Shown here piece by piece: positions 3,634 through 36,810 of a DNA stretch of 64,000 nt; positions within the stretch are counted from its first letter, which is position 1, and every line of letters begins with the position of its first letter. The stretch is taken from NCBI GenBank assembly GCA_934162685.1, contig CAKPJO010000001.1, positions 30,602-94,601 of the forward strand, given 5' to 3'. Under the pieces are notes generated by a model. That model saw only the letters and a program-made list of their open reading frames with translations, ran no database searches and had not been told where the DNA came from. Both the position numbers and the translations under genes were made by a program. This stretch comes from an uncultured Bacilli bacterium (GTDB lineage Bacteria > Bacillota_I > Bacilli_A > RFN20 > CAG-826).

Positions 3634-3680
3634 TTGACAATGGGGAATATTTCTATATAATAAATATGTAAAAAGTACCC
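3634..3680 (+). promoter_or_regulatory. sigma-A type promoter P1 (TTGACA-16-TATAAT followed by AAATATGTAA)
   Basis: Near-consensus -35/-10; member of the repeated promoter family. Confidence 0.55.
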
Positions 3681-3720
3681 CAAATTACTTTTTTTGGTAA
3701 AAACGTTTTAGAAAAATACT

Positions 3721-6700
3721 TTGACCCCTGTTGGGGTGTGTTATAGAAAGGTGGAGATTTTAATGTATTGTAGTTTACATAATCATACAATGTATTCAAA
3801 TTTAAAATTATTAGATAGTATCAATAGAATTCCAGATATGATAAATAAAGCTATAGAATACGGTTTTAACGGTTTAGCTATCACGGACCATGAAATATTA
3901 TCAGGCCATGTTGAAGCTTTAGAATATGCTGATAAGATTAAAAAAGATCATCCTGATTTTAAAGTAATACTAGGGAATGAAATTTATTTAATTAAAGAAA
4001 AAGAATATAAACAACCAGAAACAAAATTCTGGCATTTCTTATTAATTGCAAAAGATTTAACAGGATACATGCAAATTCGTAAATTAAGTTCTAAAGCCTG
4101 GGATCGTATGTATGTATCTAAAGGACAAAAAAGAACTCCCACTTTTTATGAAGACTTTGAAGCAATAATTGGTAATGATAAAGGTCATATTATAATGTCA
4201 ACAGCCTGTTTAGGTTCATATTTAAACGATTGTTTTATTAGACACGATTTAGAAGAAATTAAATTTTATATAAATTGGATGGTTAAAACTGTTGGAAAAG
4301 AAAATGCTTTTTTAGAAATACAAGATAGTGACTCTATTGAACAACAAAATTATAATAAATTTATTTTAAAATTAGGAAAACAATTAAACTTAAAAGTAAT
4401 TGTAACTCAAGATGCTCATTATCTGAATAAAGAAGATTTACAAATTGAAAAAACCTTTTTAAACAGTAAACAAGAAGGAGATCGAGAGGTTGACGCTTTC
4501 TATAAATATACTTATATGAAACCAGAAAGTGAAATCAAACAAATTCTTTCTTATCTTCCTGTAGAAGATGTTCAACAAGCTATTGATAATACTCAAATAA
4601 TTTATCGAATGATACAACCATATGATATAAGAAAAGATACAATTATTCCACAAAGAAAACTTCCTTCCTTTCAATTAAAACATTTATTAAAAGAATGGTA
4701 TGAACAAGAAGAAAACATAAAAGCATTTGCTGAAAGTTTGTGGGACCAAGATAGATTTTTATTGCATTTAATTGAGCAAGGAATAGAAGAAAAAAATTTT
4801 AAAGTAACTAAATTAGAAGCAGATAGAATTAATACTGAACTTGGTGTTTTAAAATATATTACTGAAAGAGTGCATCAACCTATGAGTGCGTACTTAAATT
4901 TGGTGCAAGAAATTATTAATTTAATGTGGGAAGTATCGTTTATCGGCGTCAGCAGAGGATGTTTTACAGAAGATGCCCAAATTTTAATGGGAGACGGAAG
5001 TTATAAATCAATTAAAGATGTACAAGAAGGAGACTTAGTTTATACTCATTTAGGAAGAATAAAGAAAGTTTTACAAACTCATCAATATAACGTAAATGAA
5101 CGATTATATACAATCAAAGTGCGCGGACGTCCTGCATTTACTTGTACTAATAATCATCAAATATTTGGTAGCCATCAAGGTTCTTGTAAAGCACCTGGTT
5201 CTAAAAATGTTTATTGTTCAGGAAAGTGTAAAAGGTTCAGTACTTGTCCTTATGCCACTGGAGAAGCAATTCAAGCTCATTGGATTGAGGCACAAAATTT
5301 AAAAAAGGGAGATTTTGTTACAACTCCAAAATTTAATTTTGCAAATCCTACAAGTAATTTAATAGATTTAATGAAATATATCCCTGAATCTAGTGCCGTA
5401 GGAGAAAACCAATTTTATTATAAGCGTAAAGATGATCGTTATTGTTCTGGAATAGTGAAAAAATTTATAGCCAATCGCTATTCACAATGGACACCTGGTC
5501 TTGCTCGTCTTGTTGGTTATTTTATTGGAAATGGATGGACAAGAAAAAAAGATGATAAGTCAAATTCAATAATTCAGTTTGGCCTTGCCTTTCATAGTGA
5601 GGCAACAGAAAAAATTAATGATTGTGTTAATTTAATTGAAAACGAATTACATTTATCTTATAAAATCAGACCTTCTTCTCGTCGAAAGGTAGTACAAATT
5701 ATAGTAGGAAACAAGCCTTGGGCTAACTTTTTTGCGGCAGAGTGCGGAATAGGAAGTCATAATAAAAAAATTCCTTATAAAATCTTCACAGATTTAACAT
5801 TAGCTAAAGAATGCATGAGAGGGTTAATTCTCACTGATGGTAGTACAGATTTAAAAAGACGTCGTTTTAAATATAGCACAATTTCTCCTATGCTTCAAAA
5901 ACAAGTTTTTTATTTGCTTAATTTATTAAAATATAATTCTTTTATGAATGAATTTGATAAGAGGCAAGAAAATTGGGAGCCAGAAAGAACAAATTGTTTA
6001 TCAGGAACTCAACTTTTGAAATTTTGCGAAGAATTTAATTTAGGAACACCTATGACTTCACAACTTGCATATACTCGTCAAGATTTTGAAGAAGATGAAC
6101 AATATTATTATAATAAAATTGAAAATATAGAGACAAAAAACTTTCAAGGAATAGTTTACGATTTAACAGTAGAAGATGACACTTCTTATATTGTGAATGG
6201 GTGTGCTGTACATAATAGCGCAATGTCATTCTTAATTAATTATTTAATTGGAATTGTGCAAGTTAATCCAATTCCTTACGATGTTCCTTATTGGAGATTT
6301 ATGAATACTGCAAGTATTCCAACGTTAACGCCAGAAGAAATTAAAGCAGGTAAAAAACTTTCAATAGCGGCAACGATGCCTGATGTTGATATAGATATTA
6401 GTCCTACAAAAGCAAATGAGGTTATGGATATTATGAGACAACATTATGGAGAAGATAATATTCTTAATACACTAACTTATAAAAAAGAATCTTTAAAAGC
6501 TGCTTTAAATAGTTGCGGTAGAGGATTAGGATTATTACCCGAAGAAACTCATTATTTATCAAGTTTGGTTCCTACTTCTAGAGGTCACGTTTATTCTTTA
6601 CAAGAATGTGAAGAAGGTGACGAAGAAAAGGGCTTTGAAGCTCATCCAGAGGTAATTCAAGCTATTCAAAAATATCCTGGTTTATATGAGGCCGTTAAAA

Positions 6701-7479
6701 AGATAGAAGGTTTAATTTCAGGTTCTGGAATTCACGCTTCTGCCGTTTACTTCTTTCCTGATGGTTATATTAATTGTTGTTCTATGATGCGAGCCCCAAA
6801 CGGTACCCGTATAACAGGATTTGATTATAGAGCGGTTGATGCTTGTTCGGGATTAAAAATGGACTTTTTATATACCGATTGTCAAACTAAATTAATGAAA
6901 ACAATGGACTTATTATTAAAATATAATCAAATTAAATGGCAAGGTTCTTTAAGGGCTACTTATAATAAATATTTACATCCAGATGTATTAGATTATAATA
7001 ATCCTGAAATGTGGAAAAGAATGCAAGAAGGACAAATATCTAATTTGTTCCAATTTGATAGTTTACAAGGGGCCATTTGTATTAAAAGAACTCGTCCTGA
7101 GAATGTAAAACAATTAGGAGCAGCAAATGCTGTTATGAGATTAATGAGTTCTGATGGTGGAGAAACTCCATTAGATAGATATGTACGTTTCAGAAATGAT
7201 ATAAGCGAATGGTATAAAGAAATGGATGAATATGGTTTAACAAAACACGAGCAGTCTCTTCTTGAAAGATATTTATTACCTAAGTTTGGCAATTCTGTAG
7301 AACAAGAAGATATGATGCAAATTGTTCAAGATCCTGAAATTTCTAACTTTACATTAGGAGAAAGCAACAAGTTTCGTAAGGTGGTGTCCAAAAAGAAACT
7401 TAAAGAAATTGAAAAATATAAGAAATTATTCTTTGAAAAAAATAAAGATCCAGAGGTTTCAGAAGAACTAGATTTTTAG
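3721..7479 (+). CDS. dnaE: DNA polymerase III alpha (DnaE-like) N-terminal cistron containing an intein; PHP domain plus palm/fingers
   Basis: PHP motifs (HNHTMYS, ITDHE). Catalytic MPDVDIDIS aligns with DnaE MPDFDVDF. LKMDFL, NLFQFDS and MMQIVQ blocks match DnaE. Ends at the position where DnaE continues with ...KFAGYGFNKSHS. Confidence 0.8.
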   Translation: MTPVGVCYRKVEILMYCSLHNHTMYSNLKLLDSINRIPDMINKAIEYGFNGLAITDHEILSGHVEALEYADKIKKDHPDFKVILGNEIYLIKEKEYKQPETKFWHFLLIAKDLTGYMQIRKLSSKAWDRMYVSKGQKRTPTFYEDFEAIIGNDKGHIIMSTACLGSYLNDCFIRHDLEEIKFYINWMVKTVGKENAFLEIQDSDSIEQQNYNKFILKLGKQLNLKVIVTQDAHYLNKEDLQIEKTFLNSKQEGDREVDAFYKYTYMKPESEIKQILSYLPVEDVQQAIDNTQIIYRMIQPYDIRKDTIIPQRKLPSFQLKHLLKEWYEQEENIKAFAESLWDQDRFLLHLIEQGIEEKNFKVTKLEADRINTELGVLKYITERVHQPMSAYLNLVQEIINLMWEVSFIGVSRGCFTEDAQILMGDGSYKSIKDVQEGDLVYTHLGRIKKVLQTHQYNVNERLYTIKVRGRPAFTCTNNHQIFGSHQGSCKAPGSKNVYCSGKCKRFSTCPYATGEAIQAHWIEAQNLKKGDFVTTPKFNFANPTSNLIDLMKYIPESSAVGENQFYYKRKDDRYCSGIVKKFIANRYSQWTPGLARLVGYFIGNGWTRKKDDKSNSIIQFGLAFHSEATEKINDCVNLIENELHLSYKIRPSSRRKVVQIIVGNKPWANFFAAECGIGSHNKKIPYKIFTDLTLAKECMRGLILTDGSTDLKRRRFKYSTISPMLQKQVFYLLNLLKYNSFMNEFDKRQENWEPERTNCLSGTQLLKFCEEFNLGTPMTSQLAYTRQDFEEDEQYYYNKIENIETKNFQGIVYDLTVEDDTSYIVNGCAVHNSAMSFLINYLIGIVQVNPIPYDVPYWRFMNTASIPTLTPEEIKAGKKLSIAATMPDVDIDISPTKANEVMDIMRQHYGEDNILNTLTYKKESLKAALNSCGRGLGLLPEETHYLSSLVPTSRGHVYSLQECEEGDEEKGFEAHPEVIQAIQKYPGLYEAVKKIEGLISGSGIHASAVYFFPDGYINCCSMMRAPNGTRITGFDYRAVDACSGLKMDFLYTDCQTKLMKTMDLLLKYNQIKWQGSLRATYNKYLHPDVLDYNNPEMWKRMQEGQISNLFQFDSLQGAICIKRTRPENVKQLGAANAVMRLMSSDGGETPLDRYVRFRNDISEWYKEMDEYGLTKHEQSLLERYLLPKFGNSVEQEDMMQIVQDPEISNFTLGESNKFRKVVSKKKLKEIEKYKKLFFEKNKDPEVSEELDF
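4960..6216 (+). mobile_element. intein (419 aa) with a LAGLIDADG homing endonuclease domain, inserted in the GRGS palm motif of DnaE
   Basis: Starts CFTEDAQILMGDGS (block A) and ends VHN followed by S (+1). LAGLIDADG blocks LVGYFIGNGW and GLILTDGS. Flanking VSRG|...|SAMSFLINYLIG matches DnaE GRGS-AAGSLVAY. Confidence 0.8.
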
Positions 7480-7508
7480 AAGGGAAAATATTTCCTTCTT
7501 TTTTTATT
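7477..7508 (+). terminator. intrinsic terminator after dnaE part 1
   Basis: AGAAGGGAAAatatTTTCCTTCT hairpin plus T8; the T-run runs into the -35 TTGACT. Confidence 0.6.
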
Positions 7509-7550
7509 GACTTTTAAAAACATTTGTGTATAATAAATAGTGTAAAAAGA
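7507..7550 (+). promoter_or_regulatory. sigma-A type promoter P2 (TTGACT-18-TATAAT-AAATAGTGTAA)
   Basis: Consensus hexamers plus the conserved downstream box AAATAGTGTAA. Confidence 0.6.
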
Positions 7551-7563: not shown

Positions 7564-7731
7564 ATGAAAACTATTAGAATATTTGTTACACTTAAACAAA
7601 ATGATATAATTAATATTCCTGATGACGCATCAGATAGTGAAATTGATGCAATAGTTGATAATTATGCTAGTGAGTTAGCAGAAAACGCGGGAATTCAAAA
7701 GTATGAAGTTGAGTGGCAAGAAGATTATTAA
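7564..7731 (+). CDS. small acidic hypothetical protein (55 aa)
   Basis: ATG with AAAGGA RBS immediately after P2. Below the ORF-track cutoff. Confidence 0.4.
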   Translation: MKTIRIFVTLKQNDIINIPDDASDSEIDAIVDNYASELAENAGIQKYEVEWQEDY

Positions 7732-11691: not shown

Positions 11692-11747
11692 AAGACCTCT
11701 TTTATTTAGTGGAACTTGTGCGTAAAAAGCATAAGTTCTTTTTTTAC

Positions 11748-11790
11748 TTGACATTTACAAATATTTATATATAATTTAAGTAAGTAAGAA
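11748..11790 (+). promoter_or_regulatory. sigma-A type promoter P3 (TTGACA-16-TATAAT)
   Basis: Consensus hexamers upstream of the 11804 ORF, homing endonuclease and dnaE part 2 cassette. Confidence 0.55.
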
Positions 11791-11803: not shown

Positions 11804-12025
11804 ATGAAAAAGATTATTATTATTTGTAACGACAAAGTTATTTCAGAACACGAAACATCAGATGTATATTATGATGCAATGATGAAAGAATGTGAAAGAC
11901 AACTAAATGAAGGAACTCTAGATAGTAGAGTGTTTGAGTTCAATGAAAAAGAACAAGCTAAAATCACTAAATATATAGTGAACAATCTCATATATAAATT
12001 AATAGATAAGAAAGAAGTTGAATAG
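11804..12025 (+). CDS. hypothetical protein
   Basis: RBS AAAGGGTG. Confidence 0.45.
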   Translation: MKKIIIICNDKVISEHETSDVYYDAMMKECERQLNEGTLDSRVFEFNEKEQAKITKYIVNNLIYKLIDKKEVE

Positions 12026-13031
12026 AATGAATTTTGAAAATAGAGAATATAATAAACCTTCGCAAATTGAATATGAAGGTACTTTAACTAAAAATAGGAA
12101 TCAAAGGCCTACTTGTGACCAAAAGTTTTTAGACTGGTGTGTGGCTAATGCAGAACGTTTTAGCTCTTATTATACTATGGCTAAAGCATTAGGACTTGAT
12201 GGCAGGGCTTTTCAACGTTTAATAGAAGATTATAACATTACATTAACATTTGATAGTAAAGCTGCTCATACTCCTAAATTATATCAAGATTATGACTGGT
12301 TATATAATCAAATTGTTACTTTAAATAAGTCTCGTAAGCAAGTAGCTGAAGAAAATGGCTGGACAGTTAGAGTTTTAGAAAAATGGATGGGCATTTTAGG
12401 AATTAATAGAAGAACATACCAAGATTTAAAACAAATGTCTGATAAGCAAAGAGATTTAATTAAATTCTCATTATTAGGTGACGGATGTGTTTCTGATACA
12501 GGATTTTTTATTGTGTCTCATAGTGAAAAGCAAAAAGATTATTTATATTGGAAATATGAAATGTTGAAAGATCTTTGCTCGCATGAACCGACACGATATG
12601 ATGAGAGTGTTAAAATAATTAACGGAAAAGAAGTTAATTGCGAACCATATTATAGATTTAATACTAGAAAATTAAAGGAATTGTTTAATCTTAGAGAAAT
12701 GCCAATAGAACAAATTGTTAATGATTTAGATGAATTTGGTTTGTCAATTTGGATGTTGGACGATGCTAGCCGAGATGCTTCTTGGAAGTTATGTATAGCC
12801 GCTTATCCTGAAGAAACTAGAACATTTATTGTAAATTATTTTAAGGATAAAGGTTTTTTATCTGCTAAAGTAAGGCTATATGATACAAGATATGTGGAAT
12901 TTAATGCTGACGACAGTAGAAAAATAGATGCTATAATTTTGCGTAACATTCCTCACAATTTAGACATTATACAATATAAAATTATAAATAATAGTAGAAT
13001 TAAATCACCAAGGAGGGGAAATAATGGCTAG
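12018..13031 (+). CDS. free-standing LAGLIDADG homing endonuclease with an N-terminal DNA-binding region
   Basis: Two LAGLIDADG-type motifs (LLGDGCVSD, WMLDDASRD). Located exactly at the junction that splits dnaE; overlaps both neighbours. Confidence 0.7.
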   Translation: MNRMNFENREYNKPSQIEYEGTLTKNRNQRPTCDQKFLDWCVANAERFSSYYTMAKALGLDGRAFQRLIEDYNITLTFDSKAAHTPKLYQDYDWLYNQIVTLNKSRKQVAEENGWTVRVLEKWMGILGINRRTYQDLKQMSDKQRDLIKFSLLGDGCVSDTGFFIVSHSEKQKDYLYWKYEMLKDLCSHEPTRYDESVKIINGKEVNCEPYYRFNTRKLKELFNLREMPIEQIVNDLDEFGLSIWMLDDASRDASWKLCIAAYPEETRTFIVNYFKDKGFLSAKVRLYDTRYVEFNADDSRKIDAIILRNIPHNLDIIQYKIINNSRIKSPRRGNNG

Positions 13032-14583
13032 GCGTCTTTTCCTAGATTATGTCTGGGGAAAATGCATTCAACCACAAGTAGGATACGCCTTTTCTTTGCC
13101 GCACGATATTAGTTATTCTATAGAAGCCGTCCAAGAAGCTAATTTAGCAACAAGATATAACCCTCTTTTTTGGGAATGTGCTTGCCTTTGTATCAACGCA
13201 GGAAATACGGAAACAGGATTTGAAGAAGACGATGATGAAGAGCAAGACGAGGAAGAAAAGAAAACTAAATCAGGAGCACCATCATATGGTAAAATTTCAA
13301 AAGCTTTAACCGATTGTAGGCTTCACGGTGTAAATATTGAATTTCCAAACATTAATACATCTCAAGCAGATTTCGTTCCTGATATTGAAAATAATAGTAT
13401 TTTATATAGTTTAAAGACTGTTACAAATGTGAGCGATGATTTATATTCACAAATCATTCAGAATAGACCTTATTCATCAATAGAAGATTTCTGTTCTAAA
13501 GTATCTGTTACACCAGCACAAATGTCCAGTTTAATTAAAGCTGGTTGCTTCAATTCTTTATATAAGATGTCAAGACGAGCAATTCTCTATGCTTATTTCA
13601 ATTATTTAGCAAATCAAGAAATAATCCTTAAAAAAACATTGAACTTATCTCATTTAAAGAAAGCTTTGTCTCTTGGTGAGAAATTTCCAGGTTATGAAGA
13701 TAAAATTCAATTATTATATTTTAAAGTATACATTGATAAAAATCAAAAATTAGATCCTAGTAAAGAGGCATTCTCACTTAATGCTTTATTAAATAAGAAA
13801 TGTTATAAACTCACGGAAGAATCTTGCATCAGCTTTTTCAATATGAAAGTTGCGCCTTCATTAGATTTAAGAAAAGGTGATTATGATTATTTAGATGGAC
13901 ACACAATATTATTAAAAGCATCAAGCTTTACAAAATTCTATGATGCTCAAATGAAAGAATTAACTGATTATCTAAATTCTGAACAAGGTAAATTAGTATT
14001 TCAAAAAATGGAAAAAGATGCTTTTATAAAAGATCTTATTGAAAAATACGCAGAAGGAACCGAAGCTGACTGGGATATGCAAACAATGAATTTTTATCAA
14101 TCTGAACACGCACTTGCTAGAATGTCCGAAATAAAGTATAACATTAAGAATTTTAATAAATTACCAGAAACGCCTATAACACGTAAGTATATAGGTAAAG
14201 ACGGAGAAGAAAAAGAGACAGCTGAAACTTGTGCAATATGTGGTACAGTTGTAGATGCTAATAATGTTAAACACGTGGTAAGTTTATTAACTAAGTATGG
14301 AGTGGTTAATGTTAAATTATTCTCACAAGCATATTCTAATTTTAGTCAAAAGATAAGTATTGTTGAAGATGCCGCCAAAAAGAAGAAAACAGTTTTAGAC
14401 GACTCTTGGTTTAAAAGAGGAACGAAATTAATTATTCACGGGTTCAGAAGAGAAAATATGTTTGTTGCTAAAACTGAATATGTTAATAAAGTTCCTAAAA
14501 TGGTAGGATTAATAGAAAGTTTAGATACAAACGGAAATGCTTCTATTAGATACACAAGAAAGAAGAAAATTAGTCAAGAATAA
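13024..14583 (+). CDS. dnaE: DNA polymerase III alpha (DnaE-like) C-terminal cistron; fingers/HhH/beta-binding region
   Basis: [32 protein letters not shown] aligns with DnaE [46 protein letters not shown] aligns with GLKILPPDINSG. Continues the alignment where 3721..7479 stops. Confidence 0.75.
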   Translation: [519 protein letters not shown]

Positions 14584-14600
14584 CACTTGACTTTTTCTTT
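14572..14600 (+). terminator. intrinsic terminator whose 3' arm is the -35 of P4
   Basis: AGTCAAGaataacaCTTGACT plus T5. Confidence 0.6.
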
Positions 14601-14625
14601 TATTTATATATAATATGGAATGTAT
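14587..14625 (+). promoter_or_regulatory. sigma-A type promoter P4 (TTGACT-16-TATAAT)
   Basis: Consensus hexamers, followed by GAAAGAAGG RBS of the helicase gene. Confidence 0.6.
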
Positions 14626-17086: not shown

Positions 17087-17665
17087 ATGGATTATGTTAC
17101 ATCAGATTTACATTTTAGACACAATCGAATTATTATATTTGAAAGAACTCAATTTAAAACCGTTGAAGAACACGATCAATATATTATAGAACAATGGAAT
17201 TCAGTTATTCAAGATCACGATAGAGTATTTGTGTTAGGGGATCTTGGATTTAAGCCTTTTGCAGATTTAGGTAAACTTGTTAAGCAATTAAAAGGACATA
17301 AAATTTTAGTTAAAGGAAATCACGATCAAATGGTTGTGGGAGACGCAATTAATATGGGTTTTGAAATGATGTATGACCATCCTATTTATTATAATACACA
17401 CATAATATTATCTCACGAACCTGTAAAAGAAGCGTGGGATAATCCTTATGTTTATAATATTCACGGGCATTGTCATAACTTTCAAACTATTGACGCACCT
17501 AATTTTGTAAATGTTAATATTGCCACCACTGATTATAAGCCAATTCCTATGGCACAATTTGTATCTAAAGCTAATTTAAGATGTAAATCAAGAAAAGAAA
17601 AATGGGAAACCGAATGGTATTGTCCATATTTATTAAAAAAAGAGCAAGATAGTCGCAATAAGTGA
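17087..17665 (+). CDS. calcineurin-like metallophosphoesterase
   Basis: Motifs DLHF, VFVLGDLGF, VKGNHD, IHGHCH. Confidence 0.7.
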   Translation: MDYVTSDLHFRHNRIIIFERTQFKTVEEHDQYIIEQWNSVIQDHDRVFVLGDLGFKPFADLGKLVKQLKGHKILVKGNHDQMVVGDAINMGFEMMYDHPIYYNTHIILSHEPVKEAWDNPYVYNIHGHCHNFQTIDAPNFVNVNIATTDYKPIPMAQFVSKANLRCKSRKEKWETEWYCPYLLKKEQDSRNK

Positions 17666-17685
17666 AAAAATTGCGACTTTTTCTT
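17651..17685 (+). terminator. intrinsic terminator (AGTCGCAA...TTGCGACT plus T5)
   Basis: 8-bp stem hairpin then T-run, immediately followed by P5. Confidence 0.6.
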
Positions 17686-17693
17686 CTTTTTCT

Positions 17694-17740
17694 ATTGACT
17701 TTTAAATATATTCTAGTATTATTAATAATGTAAAAGGGAG
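17694..17740 (+). promoter_or_regulatory. sigma-A type promoter P5 (TTGACT; weaker -10; TAATAATGTAAAAGGGAGG)
   Basis: -35 consensus and downstream AATGTAA box. Confidence 0.45.
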
Positions 17741-20599: not shown

Positions 20600-20645
20600 T
20601 TGATTTTAAAAATTATTTTGCTATAATAAATAGTGAAGAAAGGAG
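20600..20645 (+). promoter_or_regulatory. sigma-A type promoter P6 (TTGATT-17-TATAAT-AAATAGTGAAG)
   Basis: Family consensus. Confidence 0.55.
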
Positions 20646-20656: not shown

Positions 20657-21268
20657 ATGGGATTAGACATCGGTTTTAGAGTATGGGACAAAACTCCCGA
20701 AGGCAGATTAGTCGAGCATAAGTTATCGGAGGCTGACTACTGGAATTCTGGTTCTTGTGGTAGATGTGAAATGAACTATGCTTGGAATTATGGATGCAAG
20801 GATGATTATGAAAAAAAGATTTATTCTTCACCTGTGTTTTCTAAAGAGTTTGACGGATATTCACAAACAGAAGATGATTCTGTTGGAAACAGCTGGACCA
20901 ATAAATATGTATATGTTGACTTTGAAGATTTTAGAAAAGTTATTAATGCTAAAATTGAACAAGTTGAGAAAGAACATTCTGATTGGAGCCTTCGTTTATT
21001 AAGAGAGCAAGCTAATATGAAACACGAAATCAAAGAGTATCGTGACCTTCAATTAAAATGCACTGAAGCAAATGCTTATGCCTTCGATCGTTTCCAAGAA
21101 GAGATTAATAAACTTAAAGAAGCAATTGCATATAGTGAAGAAACATATCGTAATCTTGATGAAGAAGATTATGATTATTCAAAAGCTATGGCTTGCAAGC
21201 GTATGCTTGAATTAATGGACAAGTTTATTAAAGAAGGATATGTCGTTACAACATATTATTCTGATTAA
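20657..21268 (+). CDS. hypothetical protein with a coiled-coil C-terminal half
   Basis: RBS AAGGAG. Confidence 0.5.
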   Translation: MGLDIGFRVWDKTPEGRLVEHKLSEADYWNSGSCGRCEMNYAWNYGCKDDYEKKIYSSPVFSKEFDGYSQTEDDSVGNSWTNKYVYVDFEDFRKVINAKIEQVEKEHSDWSLRLLREQANMKHEIKEYRDLQLKCTEANAYAFDRFQEEINKLKEAIAYSEETYRNLDEEDYDYSKAMACKRMLELMDKFIKEGYVVTTYYSD

Positions 21269-21305: not shown

Positions 21306-21788
21306 ATGAGTCGTAAACGTTTTGATGATGATGAAGATTTCTATGAACCTCGTAACAAGAAAAAAACTAAAAAAGGTCGCACAGGACTAGGAGAGCAATT
21401 TGCTAGCATCAATGAGAATACCGAAGATGTATTTGAAAATACTAACACTGTAACATTTGGAAGATTTTGTTCTAACGATCAAAGAAAGAATAAAACTTTC
21501 GTACAACCTGCTCCTGCTCCTAAAAAGGTTGAAACTCCAAGATACTCCCCTCAACCTAATAAGACACCTATTCCTACTAACATCTTAAGAGTTAACAACA
21601 GAGACATAGATCTTACAACTGCTAAAGGCATCTTTAAACAACCTGACGAGTTATCATTATTAATTAAATATAATGATGGTTCAGAAGAAGTTATATCTTT
21701 CAAAGATAAGAACTTCACAACAAAGATGTTCTATAGAGCATTAGGTTTCATTAAAAATCAAAAAAGAATTAATAAAGAGAGAAAGTAA
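21306..21788 (+). CDS. basic hypothetical protein
   Basis: RBS AAGGAG; lysine-rich N-terminus. Confidence 0.5.
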   Translation: MSRKRFDDDEDFYEPRNKKKTKKGRTGLGEQFASINENTEDVFENTNTVTFGRFCSNDQRKNKTFVQPAPAPKKVETPRYSPQPNKTPIPTNILRVNNRDIDLTTAKGIFKQPDELSLLIKYNDGSEEVISFKDKNFTTKMFYRALGFIKNQKRINKERK

Positions 21789-21807
21789 AAATTCTCTCTT
21801 TTTTTTC
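21776..21807 (+). terminator. intrinsic terminator (AGAGAGAA...TTCTCTCT plus T8)
   Basis: Stem plus long T-run; runs into the P7 -35. Confidence 0.65.
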
Positions 21808-21850
21808 TTGACTTTTATAAATAATCCGCTATACTAGTATTGTAAATCAA
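21808..21850 (+). promoter_or_regulatory. sigma-A type promoter P7 (TTGACT-16-TATACT)
   Basis: Family consensus. Confidence 0.55.
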
Positions 21851-25215: not shown

Positions 25216-25756
25216 TATGGAATTTAAAGTAGAAATATTAAAATACCCAAAAGAAGAAGATTTACTTTGGTGTAAACAATGTTGTTTAAATACAATAGGA
25301 AAATCAACAACAAAACAACCTACTGAAGAATGGTTGGTTAAACTTGTAGAGGCTGAGCATAGTCCAATGAGAGAACTTTGGTTTGGCATCAAAATGACTA
25401 TTCCTTACTATATTTCAAATCATTTCATACGCCATCATATAGGGGTTAATCATTATGTTCAATCTCAAAGAAATGATAGACAAACTAATTATGATCGAAC
25501 TAAGGCCCCTCAAGATGCAATGGTAAGTCATATTATGTCTATTAATGCTCAAGAATTGGTATTCATGGCACATAAGAGATTATGCAATCAAGCAAGTCCT
25601 GAAACGCATTTAATAATGCAAACAATCTGTGATGAGGTTATTAAAGTTGCACCTTATATGAAATCGGTTCTTGTACCATTATGTGTATATAGAAACAACA
25701 AATGTACTGAATTCTTCCCTTGTGCAAGAGCAAAAACTTTTAAAAATAATAACTAA
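25205..25756 (+). CDS. thyX: ThyX-like flavin-dependent thymidylate synthase (short form)
   Basis: RHHIGVNHYVQSQR aligns with the ThyX signature RHRxxxxxxQSQR. 183 aa, shorter than typical ThyX; the start may be ATG 25217. Confidence 0.45.
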   Translation: MKASMEFKVEILKYPKEEDLLWCKQCCLNTIGKSTTKQPTEEWLVKLVEAEHSPMRELWFGIKMTIPYYISNHFIRHHIGVNHYVQSQRNDRQTNYDRTKAPQDAMVSHIMSINAQELVFMAHKRLCNQASPETHLIMQTICDEVIKVAPYMKSVLVPLCVYRNNKCTEFFPCARAKTFKNNN

Positions 25757-25786
25757 AGTCAATCAAAACGGTTGACTTTTTTTTAT
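25757..25786 (+). terminator. intrinsic terminator sharing its 3' arm with the P8 -35
   Basis: AGTCAAtcaaaacggTTGACT plus T8. Confidence 0.6.
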
Positions 25787-25815
25787 AATCTTATATAATA
25801 GATATAGAAATGAGG
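25772..25815 (+). promoter_or_regulatory. sigma-A type promoter P8 (TTGACT-16-TATAAT)
   Basis: Family consensus. Confidence 0.55.
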
Positions 25816-27606: not shown

Positions 27607-29073
27607 ATGGAAAGAAAAGATATTGAACAACTTATAAAATACACTTTACCAACTGAGGTATTCACAATCTTTAACACTTTAGAAAATAAAGGTTTTGAAA
27701 CTTATTTAGTGGGCGGAAGTGTGAGAGACATGTGCTTCAATGCTATTTTTCACGACAATAAAGACGCTCGTTATCGTAACGTTCACGATTTTGATTTTGC
27801 AACCGCTGCTCTTCCTGAAGAAATTATAGAAGTTTTTAAAGATTATGAAGTAATTCCAACTGGGTTAAAACACGGCACTGTTACAGTCAGGATCAACCAT
27901 CAAAATTTTGAAATAACAACATTCAGAATAGATGGTAAATATGACGATTTTCGTCATCCTAACTCTGTATCATTCACCAGATCTATAGAAGAAGATTTGA
28001 GCCGTCGCGACTTCACAATGAACGCTATTGCTTATAGTCCAACAAGAGGTTTAGTCGATCCTTTTAATGGTATTGGAGATCTTGATAATATAAGATGTGT
28101 TGGAGACCCAACCCAAAGATTTCGAGAAGATCCTTTAAGAATTCTTAGAGCATCACGCTTTGCTCTTCAATTTATGATACCTATTGAAATCAATACATAT
28201 GAAGCTGCTCAACAAAACGTGAATTTAATTCATCATTTATCAAAAGAAAGAGTAACTGATGAATTCAAAAAAATGTTAAATATCGATCCTTTAAACATTA
28301 CTTATTCTATATTTAGAACTTATTATGGCTTTATTTTAGAAGAATACTTTCCAACATTAAAAGAATACGCAAATTTTCGTCCTACTTTGAATAAAGAACC
28401 TCAAATTTGGAATAAATATCTTCGTATACAAGACCATCAAGTTAATGTGTTTTTAAGAGTGAGATATTTATATCCAATGTTTGATTTTGCTCTTTATTTG
28501 GCTGCTTTATGTCACGACTTAGGAAAACAAAATGCAGAAACAGTAACTCTAACAGACGACAAAATTAAAATATATCATTATTATAGACATCCAGAAGAAA
28601 GTCTTAAAATTTTTGAACAAGAAGTATTGCCTCGTTTATCATTATCAAAAAGAGAAATTGACGAAGCCAGAACATTAATTTTATATCATGATATGCGTAT
28701 TGCCCCTACTAAAAAATCAGTAAAAAAAGCTTTACAAAAAATGTCCCCATTAATGTTATCTTTATTATTTAAATTGCAAGAAGCTGACCTTGATGACCAT
28801 GAATTTGCTAATTTATTAAGAAAGAAAAATACATATCGTGATTTATATGTGACACAATACATCGCCTCAGAAATTCATAAAGATATTCAAGAATGCTTCA
28901 CCATAAAACAACTTAAAATCAATGGTAGAGACCTTCTAAATTTAGGAATAGAACCAGGCCCCAAAATTGGTAAAATTCTTAAAGAATTATTAAAGAAAGT
29001 TATTGATGAAGAGATTCAAAATGATCCTAGGTCTCTCTTACAATATGCACAACATTTAGCCACAAAAGAATGA
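27607..29073 (+). CDS. cca: CCA-adding enzyme / tRNA nucleotidyltransferase (class II, with HD domain)
   Basis: Head motifs LVGGSVRDMCF and RRDFTMNAIAY. HD-like LCHDLGK in the C-terminal half. Confidence 0.7.
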   Translation: MERKDIEQLIKYTLPTEVFTIFNTLENKGFETYLVGGSVRDMCFNAIFHDNKDARYRNVHDFDFATAALPEEIIEVFKDYEVIPTGLKHGTVTVRINHQNFEITTFRIDGKYDDFRHPNSVSFTRSIEEDLSRRDFTMNAIAYSPTRGLVDPFNGIGDLDNIRCVGDPTQRFREDPLRILRASRFALQFMIPIEINTYEAAQQNVNLIHHLSKERVTDEFKKMLNIDPLNITYSIFRTYYGFILEEYFPTLKEYANFRPTLNKEPQIWNKYLRIQDHQVNVFLRVRYLYPMFDFALYLAALCHDLGKQNAETVTLTDDKIKIYHYYRHPEESLKIFEQEVLPRLSLSKREIDEARTLILYHDMRIAPTKKSVKKALQKMSPLMLSLLFKLQEADLDDHEFANLLRKKNTYRDLYVTQYIASEIHKDIQECFTIKQLKINGRDLLNLGIEPGPKIGKILKELLKKVIDEEIQNDPRSLLQYAQHLATKE

Positions 29074-29076
29074 AAA

Positions 29077-29107
29077 AGTTAAGATTAATATCTTGACTTT
29101 TTTTTAT
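29077..29107 (+). terminator. intrinsic terminator sharing its 3' arm with the P9 -35
   Basis: AAGTTAAGATtaatATCTTGACTT plus T8. Confidence 0.6.
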
Positions 29108-29135
29108 ATTTCTCTATAATAAATAGTGTAAGAAA
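29094..29135 (+). promoter_or_regulatory. sigma-A type promoter P9 (TTGACT-15-TATAAT-AAATAGTGTAAG)
   Basis: Family consensus. Confidence 0.6.
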
Positions 29136-30339: not shown

Positions 30340-30705
30340 ATGGAAGATAAAGAAAAAATCAACAATGTTGATATTATACCAACATTTGAAGAACTACAAG
30401 CTTACTATGAAAAGCACGATATTCAACCCGATGAATTTTTTACAATAAAAATCAAAGAAGATGCTACCTATGATGAAGTGTTTGAGTTATATTTCGACAC
30501 AACTCTTTCAGATAGAAAGCCGCGTCTTACATATGGAATAATTTACGGAAACATAGATGAAGCAGAGAATTGGCAACCTCGTGACCGTGTCTACGACTTT
30601 ACTCCAGAAGGATATAAAGAATTAAAGAATGATTTATATGGCGAACTCTTAGATCGTTCAATCCAATTAGCATCTGCTATTCTTAGTATTAAAAGGTCAA
30701 TGTAA
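30340..30705 (+). CDS. hypothetical protein
   Basis: RBS AAGGAAGAA. Confidence 0.5.
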   Translation: MEDKEKINNVDIIPTFEELQAYYEKHDIQPDEFFTIKIKEDATYDEVFELYFDTTLSDRKPRLTYGIIYGNIDEAENWQPRDRVYDFTPEGYKELKNDLYGELLDRSIQLASAILSIKRSM

Positions 30706-30727
30706 AAAAACATTGACTTTTTTTTAT
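30696..30727 (+). terminator. intrinsic terminator sharing its 3' arm with the P10 -35
   Basis: GTCAATGtaaaaaaaCATTGAC plus T9. Confidence 0.6.
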
Positions 30728-30755
30728 ATTTAATTATAATAAATAATGTAAGGAG
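30714..30755 (+). promoter_or_regulatory. sigma-A type promoter P10 (TTGACT-15-TATAAT-AAATAATGTAAGGAGG)
   Basis: Family consensus. Confidence 0.6.
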
Positions 30756-31487: not shown

Positions 31488-31553
31488 AAACTCTCTTTTT
31501 TAATGCTCTTCAAACGGTGACAAAATGTCACCCTTTCATAAAGGCATTTTCTT

Positions 31554-31595
31554 ATTGACAAATATTTATATTTATATATAATAAAATTGTGAAAA
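31554..31595 (+). promoter_or_regulatory. sigma-A type promoter P11 (TTGACA-17-TATAAT)
   Basis: Consensus hexamers preceding the GC-richer gene trio that ends with the sigma factor. Confidence 0.55.
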
Positions 31596-32457: not shown

Positions 32458-33135
32458 ATGTCTAACTCAGCAATACATCAATCAAATAATAAACAACAAA
32501 CCAAACAAACCGCACGTCACCCAAAGCGCGGTCAATATAAAGACTACTCTCAACCGCTCAACGGTATGACCCTCGAACAGTCCAACAAACTTGTCACAGA
32601 TAATATGGCACTCGTCTTCTGGGTCTTAAAAGAGAAATTTCACTTTGATCCTTCCACGATGCAAGATTATGAAGATGTTGTATCTCTCGGAATGCAAGGG
32701 TTAGTCATCGCAGCACGCTGTTATGACTCTTCCACAGGTTATAGTTTTTCAACCTATGCAACACATTGCATCTCCTCTCAAATTCACTCAGAGTATTTCC
32801 GACGTAATCAAACACTCAAAGCAACACCCGAGATAGCCCCCGCTTACCTCGATGCTCCCCTCCCTCTTGAGACAGATCACGGAGCTAAGAAAACACTTCT
32901 TGATCTTCTCCCAGCATCACCTTCTTCAGATCCTTCCTTCACCCAGGACGCCCACACCATAATGGACTTCATAATTAATAATCCCGTCCCCAACAAATCC
33001 ACCCTCCTCTCCTATCTCCAAGGAACCCGCATCATAGACATTGCCAAACAAGAGTCCGTCTCCACCACCTCCATCCAGAACCGCCTTAAAGTTTCTATAT
33101 CTTATCTTCGTTCCATCTTCAACCCTTCTCACTAG
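32458..33135 (+). CDS. sigma-70 family sigma factor (regions 2 and 4)
   Basis: Region 2 LGMQGLVIAARCYD...YSFSTYATHCISSQI resembles sigma-70 region 2.1-2.3 (FSTYA). C-terminal HTH IIDIAKQESVSTTSIQNRLKVSISYLR resembles region 4.2. C-rich codon usage distinct from the surrounding genes. Confidence 0.6.
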   Translation: MSNSAIHQSNNKQQTKQTARHPKRGQYKDYSQPLNGMTLEQSNKLVTDNMALVFWVLKEKFHFDPSTMQDYEDVVSLGMQGLVIAARCYDSSTGYSFSTYATHCISSQIHSEYFRRNQTLKATPEIAPAYLDAPLPLETDHGAKKTLLDLLPASPSSDPSFTQDAHTIMDFIINNPVPNKSTLLSYLQGTRIIDIAKQESVSTTSIQNRLKVSISYLRSIFNPSH

Positions 33136-33165
33136 CCCCCTCCCCAGGGGTTTTTCTTTTTTTAT
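33136..33165 (+). terminator. intrinsic terminator (CCCCTccccAGGGG plus T-run)
   Basis: GC stem followed by TTTTTCTTTTTTT directly after the sigma gene stop. Confidence 0.6.
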
Positions 33166-33550
33166 CCTTCTTTTTACCTCTTTTTACCTTCTGGGGGAAA
33201 CGCGCAGTGAGCCATTGGGTATTGAACTTGTGCAATAGCCATTGGCGAACGATGAGCGCGTGGGGGCAAACGCGTGCCACTCCGAGATGACACACTCTGC
33301 AAGTCTTGAGAGAAAAAATGAAAATTTTTATACTCACACACTTGCGAGAGCTTTTCAACGAAAAGTCGAGGCAAAATTGCTTTACTTTCTTTAAGGGGGA
33401 ATATAAACCGAAGGTTTATATGAAATTCTTTTTACTCTTTTTAATCTTTTCTTTATTTATTTCTTTTCTTTTTAATCAACTTTTTTCTTTTCGTTTTTCT
33501 TTCTTTTCGGTTTTTTCTCATTTTTCTTGGGGGACGGTTCTTTAAAAGCA

Positions 33551-33625
33551 TGCGTGCGTGACGCACGTGTACGTGTATGCACGTATGTGTACATGTACAT
33601 ACATACACACATCACATACACAAAA
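33551..33625. repeat. 75-bp alternating purine-pyrimidine tract ((CA/TG)n and CACGTG-rich, Z-DNA-prone)
   Basis: gtgcgtgacgcacgtgtacgtgtatgcacgtatgtgtacatgtacatacatacacacatcacatacaca. Confidence 0.7.
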
Positions 33626-33642
33626 ACTAATGTGCCATTGTC

Positions 33643-33790
33643 CGCCAGCTTCAAAGCTAACTTCAAAGCTAACTTCAAAGCTTGTTTCAGAACTCTTTAT
33701 AACTCTTTAATGACCACTTACTCAAATTTTTTGATACACTTACTTCAATGTAACTTCAATGAAGCTTTGAACTAACTTCAATGTAACTTA
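33643..33790. repeat. tandem and dispersed short repeats (CTTCAAAGCTAA x3; ACTTCAATG(T/A)A x3)
   Basis: Direct reading of the sequence. Confidence 0.65.
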
Positions 33791-34027
33791 GTAATTTATA
33801 ATTTAACTTAAGTCAGGTTAAAAGTAAAAATATTAAGTTATAATCTTCCTTGAGTTCGCTTCGCTTATTTAATGGCGTAAGTGCTTATGCCCTTCCGCCA
33901 ATCTTCCATTTAAAAGTCTTGCTTCCGCAATCCTTTCAAATCCGCAAAGTGTATTTATTCTTTTTTTGTTTTCTTTTCTGTACTTTGAGTTTATGTAATA
34001 CCCAAAACTACTTAAAATGAAATATTC

Positions 34028-34332
34028 ACTATTTTTTCTCCATTTAATTCAAAGAATCTCAAGTAAAACAAGTTATAACAAGTATTTATTCGTTTTTATT
34101 GAGTTTGTTTTTTTATTCTTGATTTAATTCAAGAAAAAAATAGAAGGTTCTCGTGTACGCGTGTATACATGTATGCGTAACGTGTAAAACTCTTATTTTT
34201 TAGATTTATTAAATACTCTTTAATTTATTTTCCATTTAATTCAAGAAATTAGGTCTAAAGTGGTTTAAAACTAGTATTTATTAGTCTGGAGTGTGTTTGG
34301 TTAGTTTTTATCCATTCAATTCAAGAAAAAAA
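34028..34332. repeat. iteron-like TTCCATTTAATTCAAGAA boxes (4 copies here, a fifth at 36548)
   Basis: Copies at ~34028, 34115 (palindromic TTCTTGAtttaatTCAAGAA), 34229 and 34300. Confidence 0.55.
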
Positions 34333-34803
34333 TTAGTTAAAATTGATTCTGGAGTGTTTTGAGAGTTATACAGGGGCTTTGATTTATATGATTTAAGCGT
34401 TACACTTTGTAACGGTTTGGGTGTAACAGTTTGGTATGTTTTGTTTCACACTTTCGAGGATTACTCGTTTGTTCATTTGGGTATTTAGAGAAAATTTTTA
34501 AGTAGGATTTAAGCAAGATATTAAGTAGGATTTAAGTAGGATGATTGGTATGGTAAAATAAAGGATAAGTGGGAGAGAGGTGGGTCAAAGTGGGATAAAA
34601 TTAGGTGAAAGTGGGAGGTCACGTGTGCGGGCGCGTGCGCGATTTTCTAGGTGTGATATTTGTCACACTTTTGGCTGGGTCAAAGAAGAGAGAAGTCTTC
34701 TTTTTCTCCGATTCTAAGCCACTATTCTACAATTTTTTAGAATGATTCTAAAAATCAACAACTGTTAAAATATCAACAAAATAATTAAAAATGTTGAAAA
34801 AAG

Positions 34804-34854
34804 ATATCGAACACTTTGTTCGGAAACTCAGAAATATCGAACACTTTGTTCGAT
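34804..34854. promoter_or_regulatory. pair of palindromic operator-like sites ATCGAACACTTTGTTCGAT, 31 bp apart, upstream of P12
   Basis: Perfect 8-3-8 palindrome (second copy) and a near-perfect first copy. They lie 45-95 bp upstream of the -35. Confidence 0.55.
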
Positions 34855-34898
34855 TACTCAAAAGACGGTTGCACCAACTTAAAAAAACTCCAAAAAAA

Positions 34899-34940
34899 CT
34901 TGACATTTGATAAAAATCAATTATACTAAATAATGTAAAG
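34899..34940 (+). promoter_or_regulatory. sigma-A type promoter P12 (TTGACA-17-TATACT-AAATAATGTAAAGGAG)
   Basis: Family consensus. Confidence 0.55.
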
Positions 34941-34952
34941 GAGTGTGATAAT

Positions 34953-35273
34953 ATGAAACTACCAGAGACACTAACAGTACCAATGGAAGAGCAAGAGACT
35001 CTGATCAGTTGGAGTAGAAATGATGAAAAGGTAAAGATCTATACATCAGATAATACAGTACTAACAAAACTCAAGAAACTATCAGAAACAGCACCTGATA
35101 AATATAAACTAGTAAGTGTTGTTAATAATCAAGATGGCAGTGCATATTCTGTAACATTTGAAGTGAATAAAAAATGTGTAAGCTTAAGACAAGGAAAAGA
35201 AAGAGAATACACAGAAGAGCAAAAACAAGAAATGTTAGAGAGAATGTCAGCATTAAGAAATAGGAAAGGATAA
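34953..35273 (+). CDS. hypothetical protein
   Basis: RBS AAGGAG. Confidence 0.5.
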   Translation: MKLPETLTVPMEEQETLISWSRNDEKVKIYTSDNTVLTKLKKLSETAPDKYKLVSVVNNQDGSAYSVTFEVNKKCVSLRQGKEREYTEEQKQEMLERMSALRNRKG

Positions 35274-35279
35274 AGACAT

Positions 35280-36125: not shown

Positions 36126-36343
36126 TGTATTGGTATGATGATGATAACTTCTGGGAGGACAAGAAACCTCCTAAGACATATGATTACCTGCATGATGATA
36201 TAGAGGATCCTGCGGAATATGATGATTGGCTAAGATATATGGCAAGAGGAATCGGATTAAGGTATCCAGATGATGATGATGCGTATAAAGATCATGATGA
36301 ATACGGTGATATAATAATGCCATGGAATGATGATGACGATTAG
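36125..36343 (+). CDS. small highly acidic D/E/Y/W-rich protein (72 aa), DNA-mimic candidate
   Basis: ATGA overlap. About 40% Asp/Glu with interspersed aromatic residues. Confidence 0.45.
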   Translation: MYWYDDDNFWEDKKPPKTYDYLHDDIEDPAEYDDWLRYMARGIGLRYPDDDDAYKDHDEYGDIIMPWNDDDD

Positions 36344-36766
36344 AGAGCGTAAGCCCTCTTTTTGTTTTGTTCTGTGGAATGTTGCAATAGAGTATGATGA
36401 TTCATTTTGCAATTAGATAAATTAAGAATCCAGATGAACTAAATGATCTAGATGCATCTGATGAAGCATCAAGAAAAAGATCTGGCCCTCTGGTAAAAAA
36501 GATCCCCGCCACGCTATAAAAACGTCGCCCCATCAAACATTCAATTTATTTTCCATTTATTTCAAAGAATCTCAAACAGAATCCTTCTCAGGTATAATTT
36601 AAAGGAGCTCACCGTTCTTGTCTGCTATTTAAAGAACTACCTTTAAATAAATCACGTAAAATTAAAAATAACTATATATAAACTCTTAGAAATTCTCAGA
36701 ATCGTTAATTTAATTACTTAATAATTCAAAACAATTAAAAAAAATAAAAAAAGTTTTTAAAACCTA

Positions 36767-36810
36767 TTGACTTATTTTTATATTCCTGTATACTTATTAG
36801 TGTAAAGGGG
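36767..36810 (+). promoter_or_regulatory. sigma-A type promoter P13 (TTGACT-16-TATACT-TATTAGTGTAAAGGGGG) inside the ORF-free island
   Basis: Family consensus; followed by an RBS and a 30-codon ORF. Confidence 0.5.

Follow-up and report, generated by a model that had tools for sequence, protein, structure and literature searches.

Thirteen predicted terminator-promoter cassettes with a recurrent start-region box in an uncultured SPbeta-like phage of gut Bacillota

The locus and its genes

The stretch of DNA analysed here (the window; 64,000 nucleotides, positions 30,602 to 94,601 of contig CAKPJO010000001.1 in the assembly GCA_934162685.1 of an uncultured Bacilli bacterium) carries a family of 13 predicted promoters, designated P1 to P13 in their order along the + strand, and most of them are followed directly by a short A/T-rich box of the form AATARTGTAA, which is the subject of this report. 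The G+C content of the window is about 30%. As far as about 37 kb its genes are those of the + strand, and from 38.6 kb onwards they are those of the - strand. Among the products of the + strand block are a primase akin to YorJ of phage SPbeta, a PD-(D/E)XK nuclease, PolIII-alpha, a helicase of the RecD2 type, an RNA ligase, an RlaP-like nucleotidyltransferase, a CCA-adding enzyme and a sigma factor (32458-33135). A megablast search with 8 kb of the sequence against 50,697 phage records gave no match, and the closest protein matches among deposited phages were about 33% identical. The proteins of the window were found in the same or in 86-100% identical form on contigs of 139-143 kb, and a 95.6-kb IMG/VR contig showed a DNA identity of about 90%. 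The nearest relative in genome collections was a phage-sized contig binned as Clostridium sp. CAG:343 (primase, 54% identical); it was also the best match in a search of isolate genomes for close prophage relatives, of which none were found. Because of these relatives and the gene content, we regard the window as part of an uncultured SPbeta-like phage genome that measures about 140 kb and comes from low-GC Bacillota of the gut, with replication genes that appear distantly related to those of SPbeta.

The sigma factor (32458-33135, + strand; PHROG 351) matches the Pfam domain Sigma70_r2 only, and its gene closes the operon that begins with P11; among 5.8 billion proteins, no more than two homologues (97% and 86% identical) were present. 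YonO, the RNA polymerase used by SPbeta for its late genes, was not detectable in the window. At the genes 3721-7479, 12018-13031 and 13024-14583, PolIII-alpha contains an intein with a LAGLIDADG domain, and its gene is broken into two open reading frames (ORFs) by the cassette of P3 and a homing-endonuclease gene (LAGLIDADG_2) that is free-standing. The 90%-identical relative L004 has no DNA match to 12017-13124, and the gene is unsplit in more distant relatives.

The promoter family

The pattern TTGACW-N15-18-TATAMT was matched 12 times in the window (0.63 matches expected), a count that was reached in 0 of 100 shuffled sequences. Eleven of the 12 matches lay on the + strand within 3634-36794, all with a 16-nt spacer; with two further members, at 17695 (-10 hexamer TATTAT) and 20600 (-35 hexamer TTGATT), the family comprises 13 promoters, all on the + strand and all with 16-nt spacers. 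When a position weight matrix (PWM) built from the 13 sites was scanned over the window, 12 of the sites scored above 23 bits and the one at 20600 scored 14.6 bits, while nothing else exceeded 12 bits and the - strand gave no site. The 13 promoters of the form TTGAC(T/A)-N15-18-TATA(A/C)T claimed in the original prediction are thus real, 11 of them as matches to the pattern and those at 17695 and 20600 as the two further members. Their description as near-identical holds for the hexamers (11-12 of the 12 positions at the sigma-70/sigmaA consensus in 12 sites, 10 of 12 at 20600) but not for the spacers, whose pairwise identity is about 0.6 in the 5' part and about 0.5 in the 3' part. We infer that the 13 sites act as primary-sigma (host-type) promoters, and the type of promoter together with the gene content suggests that they are used early.

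A perfect consensus promoter of the opposite orientation (8534-8506, - strand; TTGACA-17-TATAAT) has no box and points antisense into a cluster of small ORFs. It is kept in the relative L125 (18317, - strand), and it is possibly the promoter of an antisense RNA or a chance match retained by the coding sequence.

The box downstream of the -10 hexamer

The sequence AATARTGTAA occurred seven times in the window as compared with 1.26 expected occurrences. The box follows the -10 hexamer in exact form at five of the 13 promoters (7507, 17695, 29093, 30713 and 34900) and with one mismatch or a 1-nt insertion or deletion at six (3634, 20600, 21808, 31555, 36767 and 14587), whereas it is absent from two (11748 and 25772). 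A conserved box after every promoter, as originally claimed, was therefore borne out for 11 of 13 when near matches are counted, but for only five in exact form. Its offset is always 0-1 nt after the -10 hexamer, and it is nearly never found away from promoters. The sequence TGTAA was present within 16 nt of the -10 hexamer in eight of the 13 promoters and in 2 of 82 other TATAAT sites (Fisher's test, p = 4e-7), and GTAAR followed nine of the 13 promoters and none of the 82 other sites. A shuffle test on the best common 5-mer gave modest significance only (64 of 5,000), because A/T-rich shuffles make 5-mers of their own, and the comparison with the other TATAAT sites was taken as the better control.

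The 13 sites were then aligned on a G located 7-9 nt after the -10 hexamer, which is present in 13 of 13 as the anchor of the alignment. The resulting consensus was a-A-A-t-A-r-T followed by G-T-A-A-a, the G being +1, with T(-1) in 11, T(+2) in 11, A(+3) in 12 and A(+4) in 11 of the 13. The anchor was placed 8 nt after the -10 hexamer in nine promoters and 7 nt after it in three to four, those with boxes one base shorter. RNA polymerase prefers to start at a purine preceded by a pyrimidine, with a modal window of 7-8 nt past the -10 hexamer (PMC5730371). A pyrimidine-purine start 6-9 nt past the -10 hexamer is expected of primary-sigma promoters, and a T-G step with its G at 7-8 nt is found in 11 of the 13. 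The information content is about 12 bits in the box, about 10 bits in the spacer and about 10 bits in the -35 hexamer. The third base after the -10 hexamer (-5) is A in ten promoters, T in two (21808 and 36767) and G in one.

Close relatives have AAGTGGTGTAA or AAGTAGTGTAA as the box of P2 and AGATAATGTAA as that of P12; in them AAATA is changed to AAGTG or AGATA, and the TGTAA of P1 to TAGGA. The five nucleotides directly upstream of the -10 hexamer show free variation, even among relatives of 90% identity, whereas the box is constant. Note that relatives of about 90% identity are too close for conservation rates to be calculated for each position.

Terminator hairpins and leaders

A hairpin with a free energy (dG) of -12 to -19 kcal/mol, as calculated in a 76-nt context, precedes ten of the 13 promoters, and a T-run stands directly behind the stem in seven cassettes. 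The claim that the 3' arm of the upstream terminator serves as the next -35 hexamer was confirmed for four hairpins (14572-14592, 25755-25779, 29073-29102 and 30691-30722), as was the adjoining of a T-tract to the -35 hexamer for three others (7478-7499, 11711-11739 and 21774-21801). In the four fused cassettes, the U-tract of the hairpin is the T-rich promoter spacer; the upstream gene has its stop codon within the hairpin or next to it, and the next ATG is only 60-76 nt away from this stop codon. In three further cassettes the hairpin lies 15-25 nt upstream of the promoter. These hairpins are predicted terminators.

The ribosome-binding site (RBS) had been placed about 10-20 nt past the box; the real distance is shorter, the RBS beginning 0-8 nt after the box. 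In ten cassettes the Shine-Dalgarno (SD) sequence starts 3-11 nt past the predicted +1 G, and the predicted leaders are 17-22 nt long in ten of the 13. Where the leaders are shortest, AA(A/G) of the box doubles as the A-rich 5' extension to the SD sequence (TGTAAGGAGG and TGTAAAGGAG). This layout of hairpins and leaders supports an early region built of repeated terminator-promoter-RBS cassettes. The leaders of P1 (about 53 nt) and P7 (about 63 nt) are unusually long, and those of P1 (3672-3681) and P13 (36829-36838) have AAAGTACCCC in common.

The individual cassettes

P1 (3634-3671) consists of TTGACA-16-TATAAT followed by AAATATGTAA, a box one base short; it would drive the N-terminal part of PolIII-alpha (3721-7479) and has hairpins upstream at 3552-3586 and 3587-3619. 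In the cassette of P2 (7478-7545), the T-tract of the hairpin abuts the promoter (7507-7534; TTGACT-16-TATAAT), which is followed by the exact box AAATAGTGTAA at 7535-7545, a predicted +1 at G 7542 and an ATG at 7564. The terminator of the P3 cassette (11711-11788) likewise abuts its promoter (11748-11775; ATG at 11804), and the sequence after the -10 hexamer (TTAAGTAAGTAAG) has no box, though GTAAG is present. The P4 cassette (14572-14625) begins with a hairpin (AGTCAAG-N7-CTTGACT) whose loop contains the stop codon of the upstream gene and whose 3' arm is the -35 hexamer of the promoter (14587-14614); a weak box (ATGGAATGTAT) follows, the distance from stop codon to ATG is 60 nt, and the gene driven is that of the RecD2-like helicase. 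In the P5 cassette (17651-17733), the terminator (17651-17678) precedes the promoter (17695-17722; TTGACT-16-TATTAT) and the box TAATAATGTAA; the downstream genes encode a 93-aa ORF, the RNA ligase and an aminotransferase. P6 (20600-20638) is the weakest member (TTGATT-16-TATAAT, then AAATAGTGAAG; ATG at 20657).

The P7 cassette (21774-21845) has a terminator that abuts the promoter (21808-21835; -10 hexamer TATACT), a box one base short (AGTATTGTAA) and a leader of 63 nt. In the P8 cassette (25755-25810), the 3' arm of the hairpin (AAAGTCAA..TTGACTTT) is the -35 hexamer (promoter, 25772-25799); no box is found in the sequence after the -10 hexamer (AGATATAGAAA), the stop codon and the ATG are 66 nt apart, and the genes of the RlaP-like protein and the CCA-adding enzyme follow. 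The hairpin of the P9 cassette (29073-29131) is A/U- and G-U-rich, and its 3' arm is the -35 hexamer (promoter, 29093-29120); the exact box lies at 29121-29131, and the distance from stop codon to ATG is 76 nt. The P10 cassette (30691-30751) has a hairpin of 13 bp with the stop codon in its loop, the 3' arm again being the -35 hexamer (promoter, 30713-30740), and its exact box AAATAATGTAA merges straight into GGAGG, with 60 nt from stop codon to ATG. The P11 cassette (31516-31592) has a hairpin at 31516-31532, the promoter at 31555-31582 and a variant box (AAAATTGTGA), and it heads the operon whose last gene is that of the phage sigma factor. P12 (34900-34938) has no upstream hairpin and consists of TTGACA-16-TATACT and the exact box AAATAATGTAA followed by AGGAG; it is located at a mosaic boundary with the relative L132. 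P13 (36767-36805; TTGACT-16-TATACT, then TATTAGTGTAA) reads into a short ORF and then into about 1.8 kb that is free of ORFs.

Comparison with other phage promoters

A total of 140 loci of SPbeta-like phages were gathered through the primase (35-61% identity). After the -10 hexamer, the 109 unique consensus promoters with 17-nt spacers in these loci had A at position 1 in 70%, a pyrimidine at position 6 in 78% (p = 4e-9), a purine at position 7 in 88% (p = 8e-17) and A at position 9 in 61%, each of these preferences being highly significant, and the promoters of the window follow this positional pattern with a shift of one base downstream. Of the clades with spacers of 16 nt, the nearest have ATAAGTGAA, AGAAGTGTGG, AGTAGTGAATAAGGAG and AATTAGTGAAAA.

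When 2.9 million IMG/VR contigs were scanned, TTGACW-N16-TATAMT-NNN-TARTGTAA, that is, the box at its native offset, was found at at least 120 loci, as compared with one locus for a composition-matched scramble at the native offset and seven loci for the true box moved 3 nt downstream. Only 10 of 151 loci with promoter and box shared any protein with the window, and their G+C content ranged from 0.25 to 0.62. Among bare TATAATAAATARTGTAA sites (n = 109), about half had a -35-like hexamer 16-17 nt upstream, which was an exact TTGAC in 37. As a general sample, we used 242 phage promoters chosen only for TTGACA, TATAAT and TG at positions 7-8. Their consensus after the -10 hexamer was AAAwttTGTAr, with TAA as the top triplet following TG, and on the model made from them the boxes of the window lay at the 57th to 100th percentile (seven of nine at or above the 80th).

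Interpretation and alternatives

We consider, with a probability of roughly 70%, that the window carries 13 compact cassettes read by RNA polymerase with the host primary sigma factor, in which the box is the sum of discriminator, start site and initial transcribed bases. The + strand block (about 3.6-37 kb) would then be a chain of 13 compact expression cassettes, each made up, in order, of the intrinsic terminator of the upstream unit, a consensus -35 hexamer, a T-rich 16-nt spacer, a consensus -10 hexamer, an A/T-rich discriminator of 6-7 nt, a T-G step with the start at its G, 7-8 nt past the -10 hexamer, the first transcribed bases GUAAR, an SD sequence almost at once and the start codon. 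The terminators would insulate each unit from upstream read-through, and four cassettes would save space by using the -35 hexamer as the 3' arm of the terminator and the spacer as its U-tract, so that terminator, promoter, leader and RBS fit in 60-76 nt. The conserved cassette sequences may also double as crossover points for the exchange of modules between related phages.

On this reading, the box would be conserved because these promoters are at the consensus wherever RNA polymerase, and the short leader, matters, and not because a protein binds it; judging from the scores on the 242-promoter model, the box is what results when every weakly preferred position is also at the consensus. The suggestion that it is a start-site element agrees with the data, since its position tracks the expected start, with the G 7-8 nt from the -10 hexamer, and its sequence matches the general consensus of phage promoters. 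The argument that it is too long and too conserved for a discriminator alone loses its force, because it comprises the discriminator, the start, the first four transcribed bases and the A-rich lead-in to the SD sequence, and its roughly 12 bits are on a par with those of the spacer. Most likely, to judge from its distribution, the box is not a lineage-specific operator.

Several points, however, weigh against this reading. The start nucleotide is a prediction from the sequence and not from transcript 5' ends. The hairpins that use the -35 hexamer have only three G-C pairs among 7-13 and for that reason may attenuate rather than terminate. The positional preferences in the general sample are weak (a mean of 1 bit over 12 positions), and the full box is present in 3 of its 242 promoters, whereas the exact or near box is present in 11 of 13 here; the box of this lineage is much more uniform than selection for contacts with RNA polymerase alone predicts. 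Since it is rare in general and near-uniform here, the spread of cassettes by duplication or recombination, or a lineage-specific constraint, must contribute. In addition, the comparison was one with phage promoters. The search for a regulator covered 64 kb of about 140 kb.

One way to account for the uniformity is that the box has no function of its own and was carried along with the selected -35 and -10 hexamers while paralogous cassettes were spread and homogenised by duplication and recombination, which agrees with the junctions of mosaic exchange in or next to cassettes, with the sequence TTGACTTTTTTTTATA common to P8, P9 and P10, and with the behaviour of the PeSL cassettes of T4-type phages as mobile regulatory cassettes (PMC2839356). 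In the relative L004, a 2.9-kb insertion carrying a 791-aa gene, three small genes and two promoters lies between the PolIII terminator and the homologue of the gene at 7564-7731. A cassette forms the left end of this insertion, and the right junction falls within the box, of which gaagATAAATAGTGTGTAAAAAGAAAGG (ATAAATAGTGTGTAAAAAGAAAGG) is left with neither a -35 nor a -10 hexamer. In the case of L132, the homology is interrupted just upstream of P12, just upstream of P13 and just downstream of P11. Recombination between close relatives does occur at cassettes, the number of events being small. However, the spacers of exact-box promoters are unrelated to one another (tttaaaaacatttgtg, tttgataaaaatcaat and tttttttatatttctc), the bases before the -10 hexamer vary while the box is fixed, which is not expected from contiguous conversion tracts, and the box recurs in unrelated phages. 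The unrelated spacers and the variable bases next to a fixed box make hitch-hiking by itself unlikely. A layer of selection beyond the preference of RNA polymerase, invoked for a box shared by 11 of 13 promoters here and by about 1% of comparable phage promoters, seems to us about equally doubtful. It could take the form of a phage factor that recognises TATAAT-AAATARTGTAA; the phage sigma factor or a partner of it might touch both promoter classes during the switch from early to middle expression, the second class being the candidate described below (TTAAATAGGAACA shares TAAATAG with the box). It could also take the form of a 5'-terminal RTG-TAA start-stop that loads ribosomes on the 17-22-nt leaders.

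We think it rather improbable that the box is the operator of a global phage regulator that controls all early cassettes at once, as had been proposed; such a regulator, binding over the start site, could be an MrpR-like lysogeny repressor or an early-shutoff factor. The replication module of this phage is SPbeta-like, and in SPbeta a repeated element (SPBRE) at about ten early promoters is bound by MrpR (PMC10516654). We recovered SPBRE from SPbeta as ..ACAAAtAcAAAwAATATGTATA.., with AATA-TGTA common to it and the box; the positions of box-bearing promoters, one (L125:5452) upstream of the YorF homologue and one (7507) downstream of PolIII, are syntenic; and the uniformity of the box is above the general promoter preference (3 of 242). 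However, the offset of the box from the -10 hexamer is fixed, whereas SPBRE, recovered at the published target promoters, took variable positions, either within the spacer or to one or the other side of the promoter. In five to eight of the 13 promoters, among them those that head the polymerase, helicase and RlaP operons, the box is degenerate or missing, and it is altered in close relatives, as described above. The same box stands at the same offset behind consensus promoters in many unrelated viral contigs, and no orphan box was found away from promoters in the window. Among the ORFs of the window, no homologues of MrpR/YopR, YopP, YopQ, AimR, YonR, SprA or YonO were detected (BLASTP; phmmer, E <= 10), and an SPBRE-like motif of 15-20 bp (AAAtAcAAAwAATATGTATA) is not repeated in the window, where only the partial AATA.TGTA likeness was seen.

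Very improbable, and rejected here, is the reading of the box as a 5'-terminal start-stop mini-ORF (ATG, GTG or TTG with TAA or TGA) on a leaderless transcript, serving ribosome loading, protection of the mRNA or re-initiation about 18 nt downstream. NTG-TAA or NTG-TGA is present in nine of the 13 boxes, the variant TTG TGA at 31555 retains a stop codon, the sites at 14587 and 20600 open mini-ORFs of 5-7 codons that end beside the real start codon, and in the 242 general promoters TG is most often followed by the triplets TAA and TAG. However, such a mini-ORF needs a start 5-6 nt past the -10 hexamer, outside the favoured window of 7-8 nt, and the general sample shows neither a depletion of CTG (p = 0.2) nor an enrichment of TGA (5) over TGG (10). 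The purine at position 11 is a general property of leaders, and relatives have AGTG followed by sense codons. A second -10-like hexamer (AATAAT, GATAAT or TARTGT), acting as a sigma-dependent pause or a tandem promoter, was also rejected, as it overlaps the start instead of following it and has no -35 hexamer at the right distance.

Other elements of the window

A second repeated motif, wTTAAAAATTAAATAGGAACA, is present on the - strand at 39410-50721 and also at 59112 (- strand) and 37359 (+ strand). Its core ATAGGAACA shows no variation among 12 copies, all of them intergenic and placed 6-45 nt ahead of the SD sequence of successive - strand genes, with two tandem pairs (44776/44795 and 49503/49520); the motif is kept in L132 despite variable flanks, is absent from the + strand block and shares TAAATAG with the early box. 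It is a candidate promoter class for the sigma factor of the phage itself. Another repeat of about 70 nt, at about 55700-55790 and 57770-57860 (- strand), consists of the palindrome TTAAATGTTTGGCAAACATTTAA followed by TAGTATAAAAAGATATA; it lies upstream of the genes at 55416-55679 and 57136-57747 and looks like an operator with a promoter of a third kind.

Two candidate hammerhead ribozymes are located in intergenic regions on the - strand (57835-57884 and 58879-58948), both below the gathering score: a type III candidate with UCUCUGUC, then CGUCGG..CCAACG CUGAUGA GCU-UUCG-AGC GAAAC AGAGA (Rfam RF00008, 18 bits), and a type II candidate (RF02276, 25.7 bits; E = 0.002 on 221 nt). The sigma factor gene is followed by an ORF-free, repeat-rich stretch of 1.75 kb (33135-34900) with AACTTCAAAGCT and CCATTTAATTCAAGAA three times each and TAAGTAGGATTTAAG and ATATCGAACACTTTGTTCG twice each; a related contig of 142 kb ends within its counterpart, 334 nt past the sigma gene, and the stretch is a candidate genome end, pac site or origin. 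Other long ORF-free stretches (36340-38660, 58775-60299 and 62835-63343) have a G+C content of 0.35-0.39 as compared with 0.29, and the one at 36340-38660 lies downstream of P13 and would be transcribed from it. No Rfam matches were found in the ORF-free stretches; those richer in G+C are possibly large non-coding RNAs or decayed genes.

Comparison with known regulatory systems

The early promoters of the virulent phages T4 and T5 and those of the host-takeover module of SPO1 are very strong promoters for the host sigma factor, with similarity that reaches into the spacer and the start region, and the early regions of these phages consist of many short operons; their hosts and sequences differ from those of the window. 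The B. subtilis promoter Pveg, TACAAT AAATGTA GTGAGG, likewise begins with AAAT after the -10 hexamer. Strong sigmaA promoters of the rrn P1 and Pveg type and those of the window have in common consensus hexamers, an A/T-rich stretch that separates the -10 hexamer from +1, and a predicted +1 G 8 bp from the -10 hexamer, but the spacers of the window are of 16 and not 17 nt, and the TG of an extended -10 element is present only at 7507. At B. subtilis rrn P1, which has an A/T-rich discriminator and a +1 G 8 bp from the -10 hexamer, a T at -5 is required for sensitivity to GTP (Sojka et al. 2011, PMC3113569). The geometry of the window promoters would fit GTP sensing, but the T at -5 is missing (A in 10 of 13), and this reading was rejected.

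SPBRE of SPbeta (Kohm et al. 2023, PMC10516654) is alike in being a repeated motif at about ten early-operon promoters of the same broad lineage, with a partial likeness in sequence (AATATGTATA as compared with AATAGTGTAA). It is, however, an almost invariant element of 15-20 bp in variable positions, whereas the box is short, degenerate, locked to the -10 hexamer and found also in unrelated phages; and SPbeta has MrpR and YonO, whereas the window lacks an MrpR homologue and encodes a sigma factor in place of YonO.

The cassettes as a whole are closest in layout to the PeSL elements of T4-type phages, in which a strong sigma-70 early promoter is combined with a terminator stem-loop and which mediate modular shuffling (phi1/RB49; Arbiol et al. 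2010, PMC2839356). Both are repeated small intergenic cassettes of promoter and stem-loop that end in an SD sequence and a start codon, and both often stand ahead of small genes without a known function, are located on the flanks of the DNA polymerase locus and coincide with crossover points between relatives. The stem-loop overlaps the -35 or -10 hexamer in some PeSL subclasses; in the window the -35 hexamer is in the stem in four cassettes and the stem abuts it in three. The window differs in its low-GC Gram-positive host, in its SPbeta-like rather than T4-like phage, in having 13 copies and not about 50, and in the unusual uniformity of the start-site region; its hairpins are A/U-rich, with TTGACT and the T-rich spacer as arm and U-tract, whereas PeSL stems are of polyG and polyC.

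The analysis provides a predicted transcription-unit map for an uncultured 140-kb gut phage, with 13 insulated units for the host polymerase, one of which includes the phage's own sigma factor gene. The start-region consensus AAAwttTGTAr of strong phage promoters would be usable for promoter annotation in metagenomic phages, and the 60-nt cassettes of terminator, promoter, leader and RBS would be ready-made, compact and insulated expression parts for low-GC Bacillota. No new regulatory principle is revealed; this is ordinary biology, neatly compacted. The cassettes belong to a known type of regulatory module of phages, and what is new is the lineage and the host group in which it is met here; PeSL-like cassettes, described in T4-type coliphages, thus appear also to organise the genome of an SPbeta-like phage of Gram-positive hosts and to mark its recombination joints.

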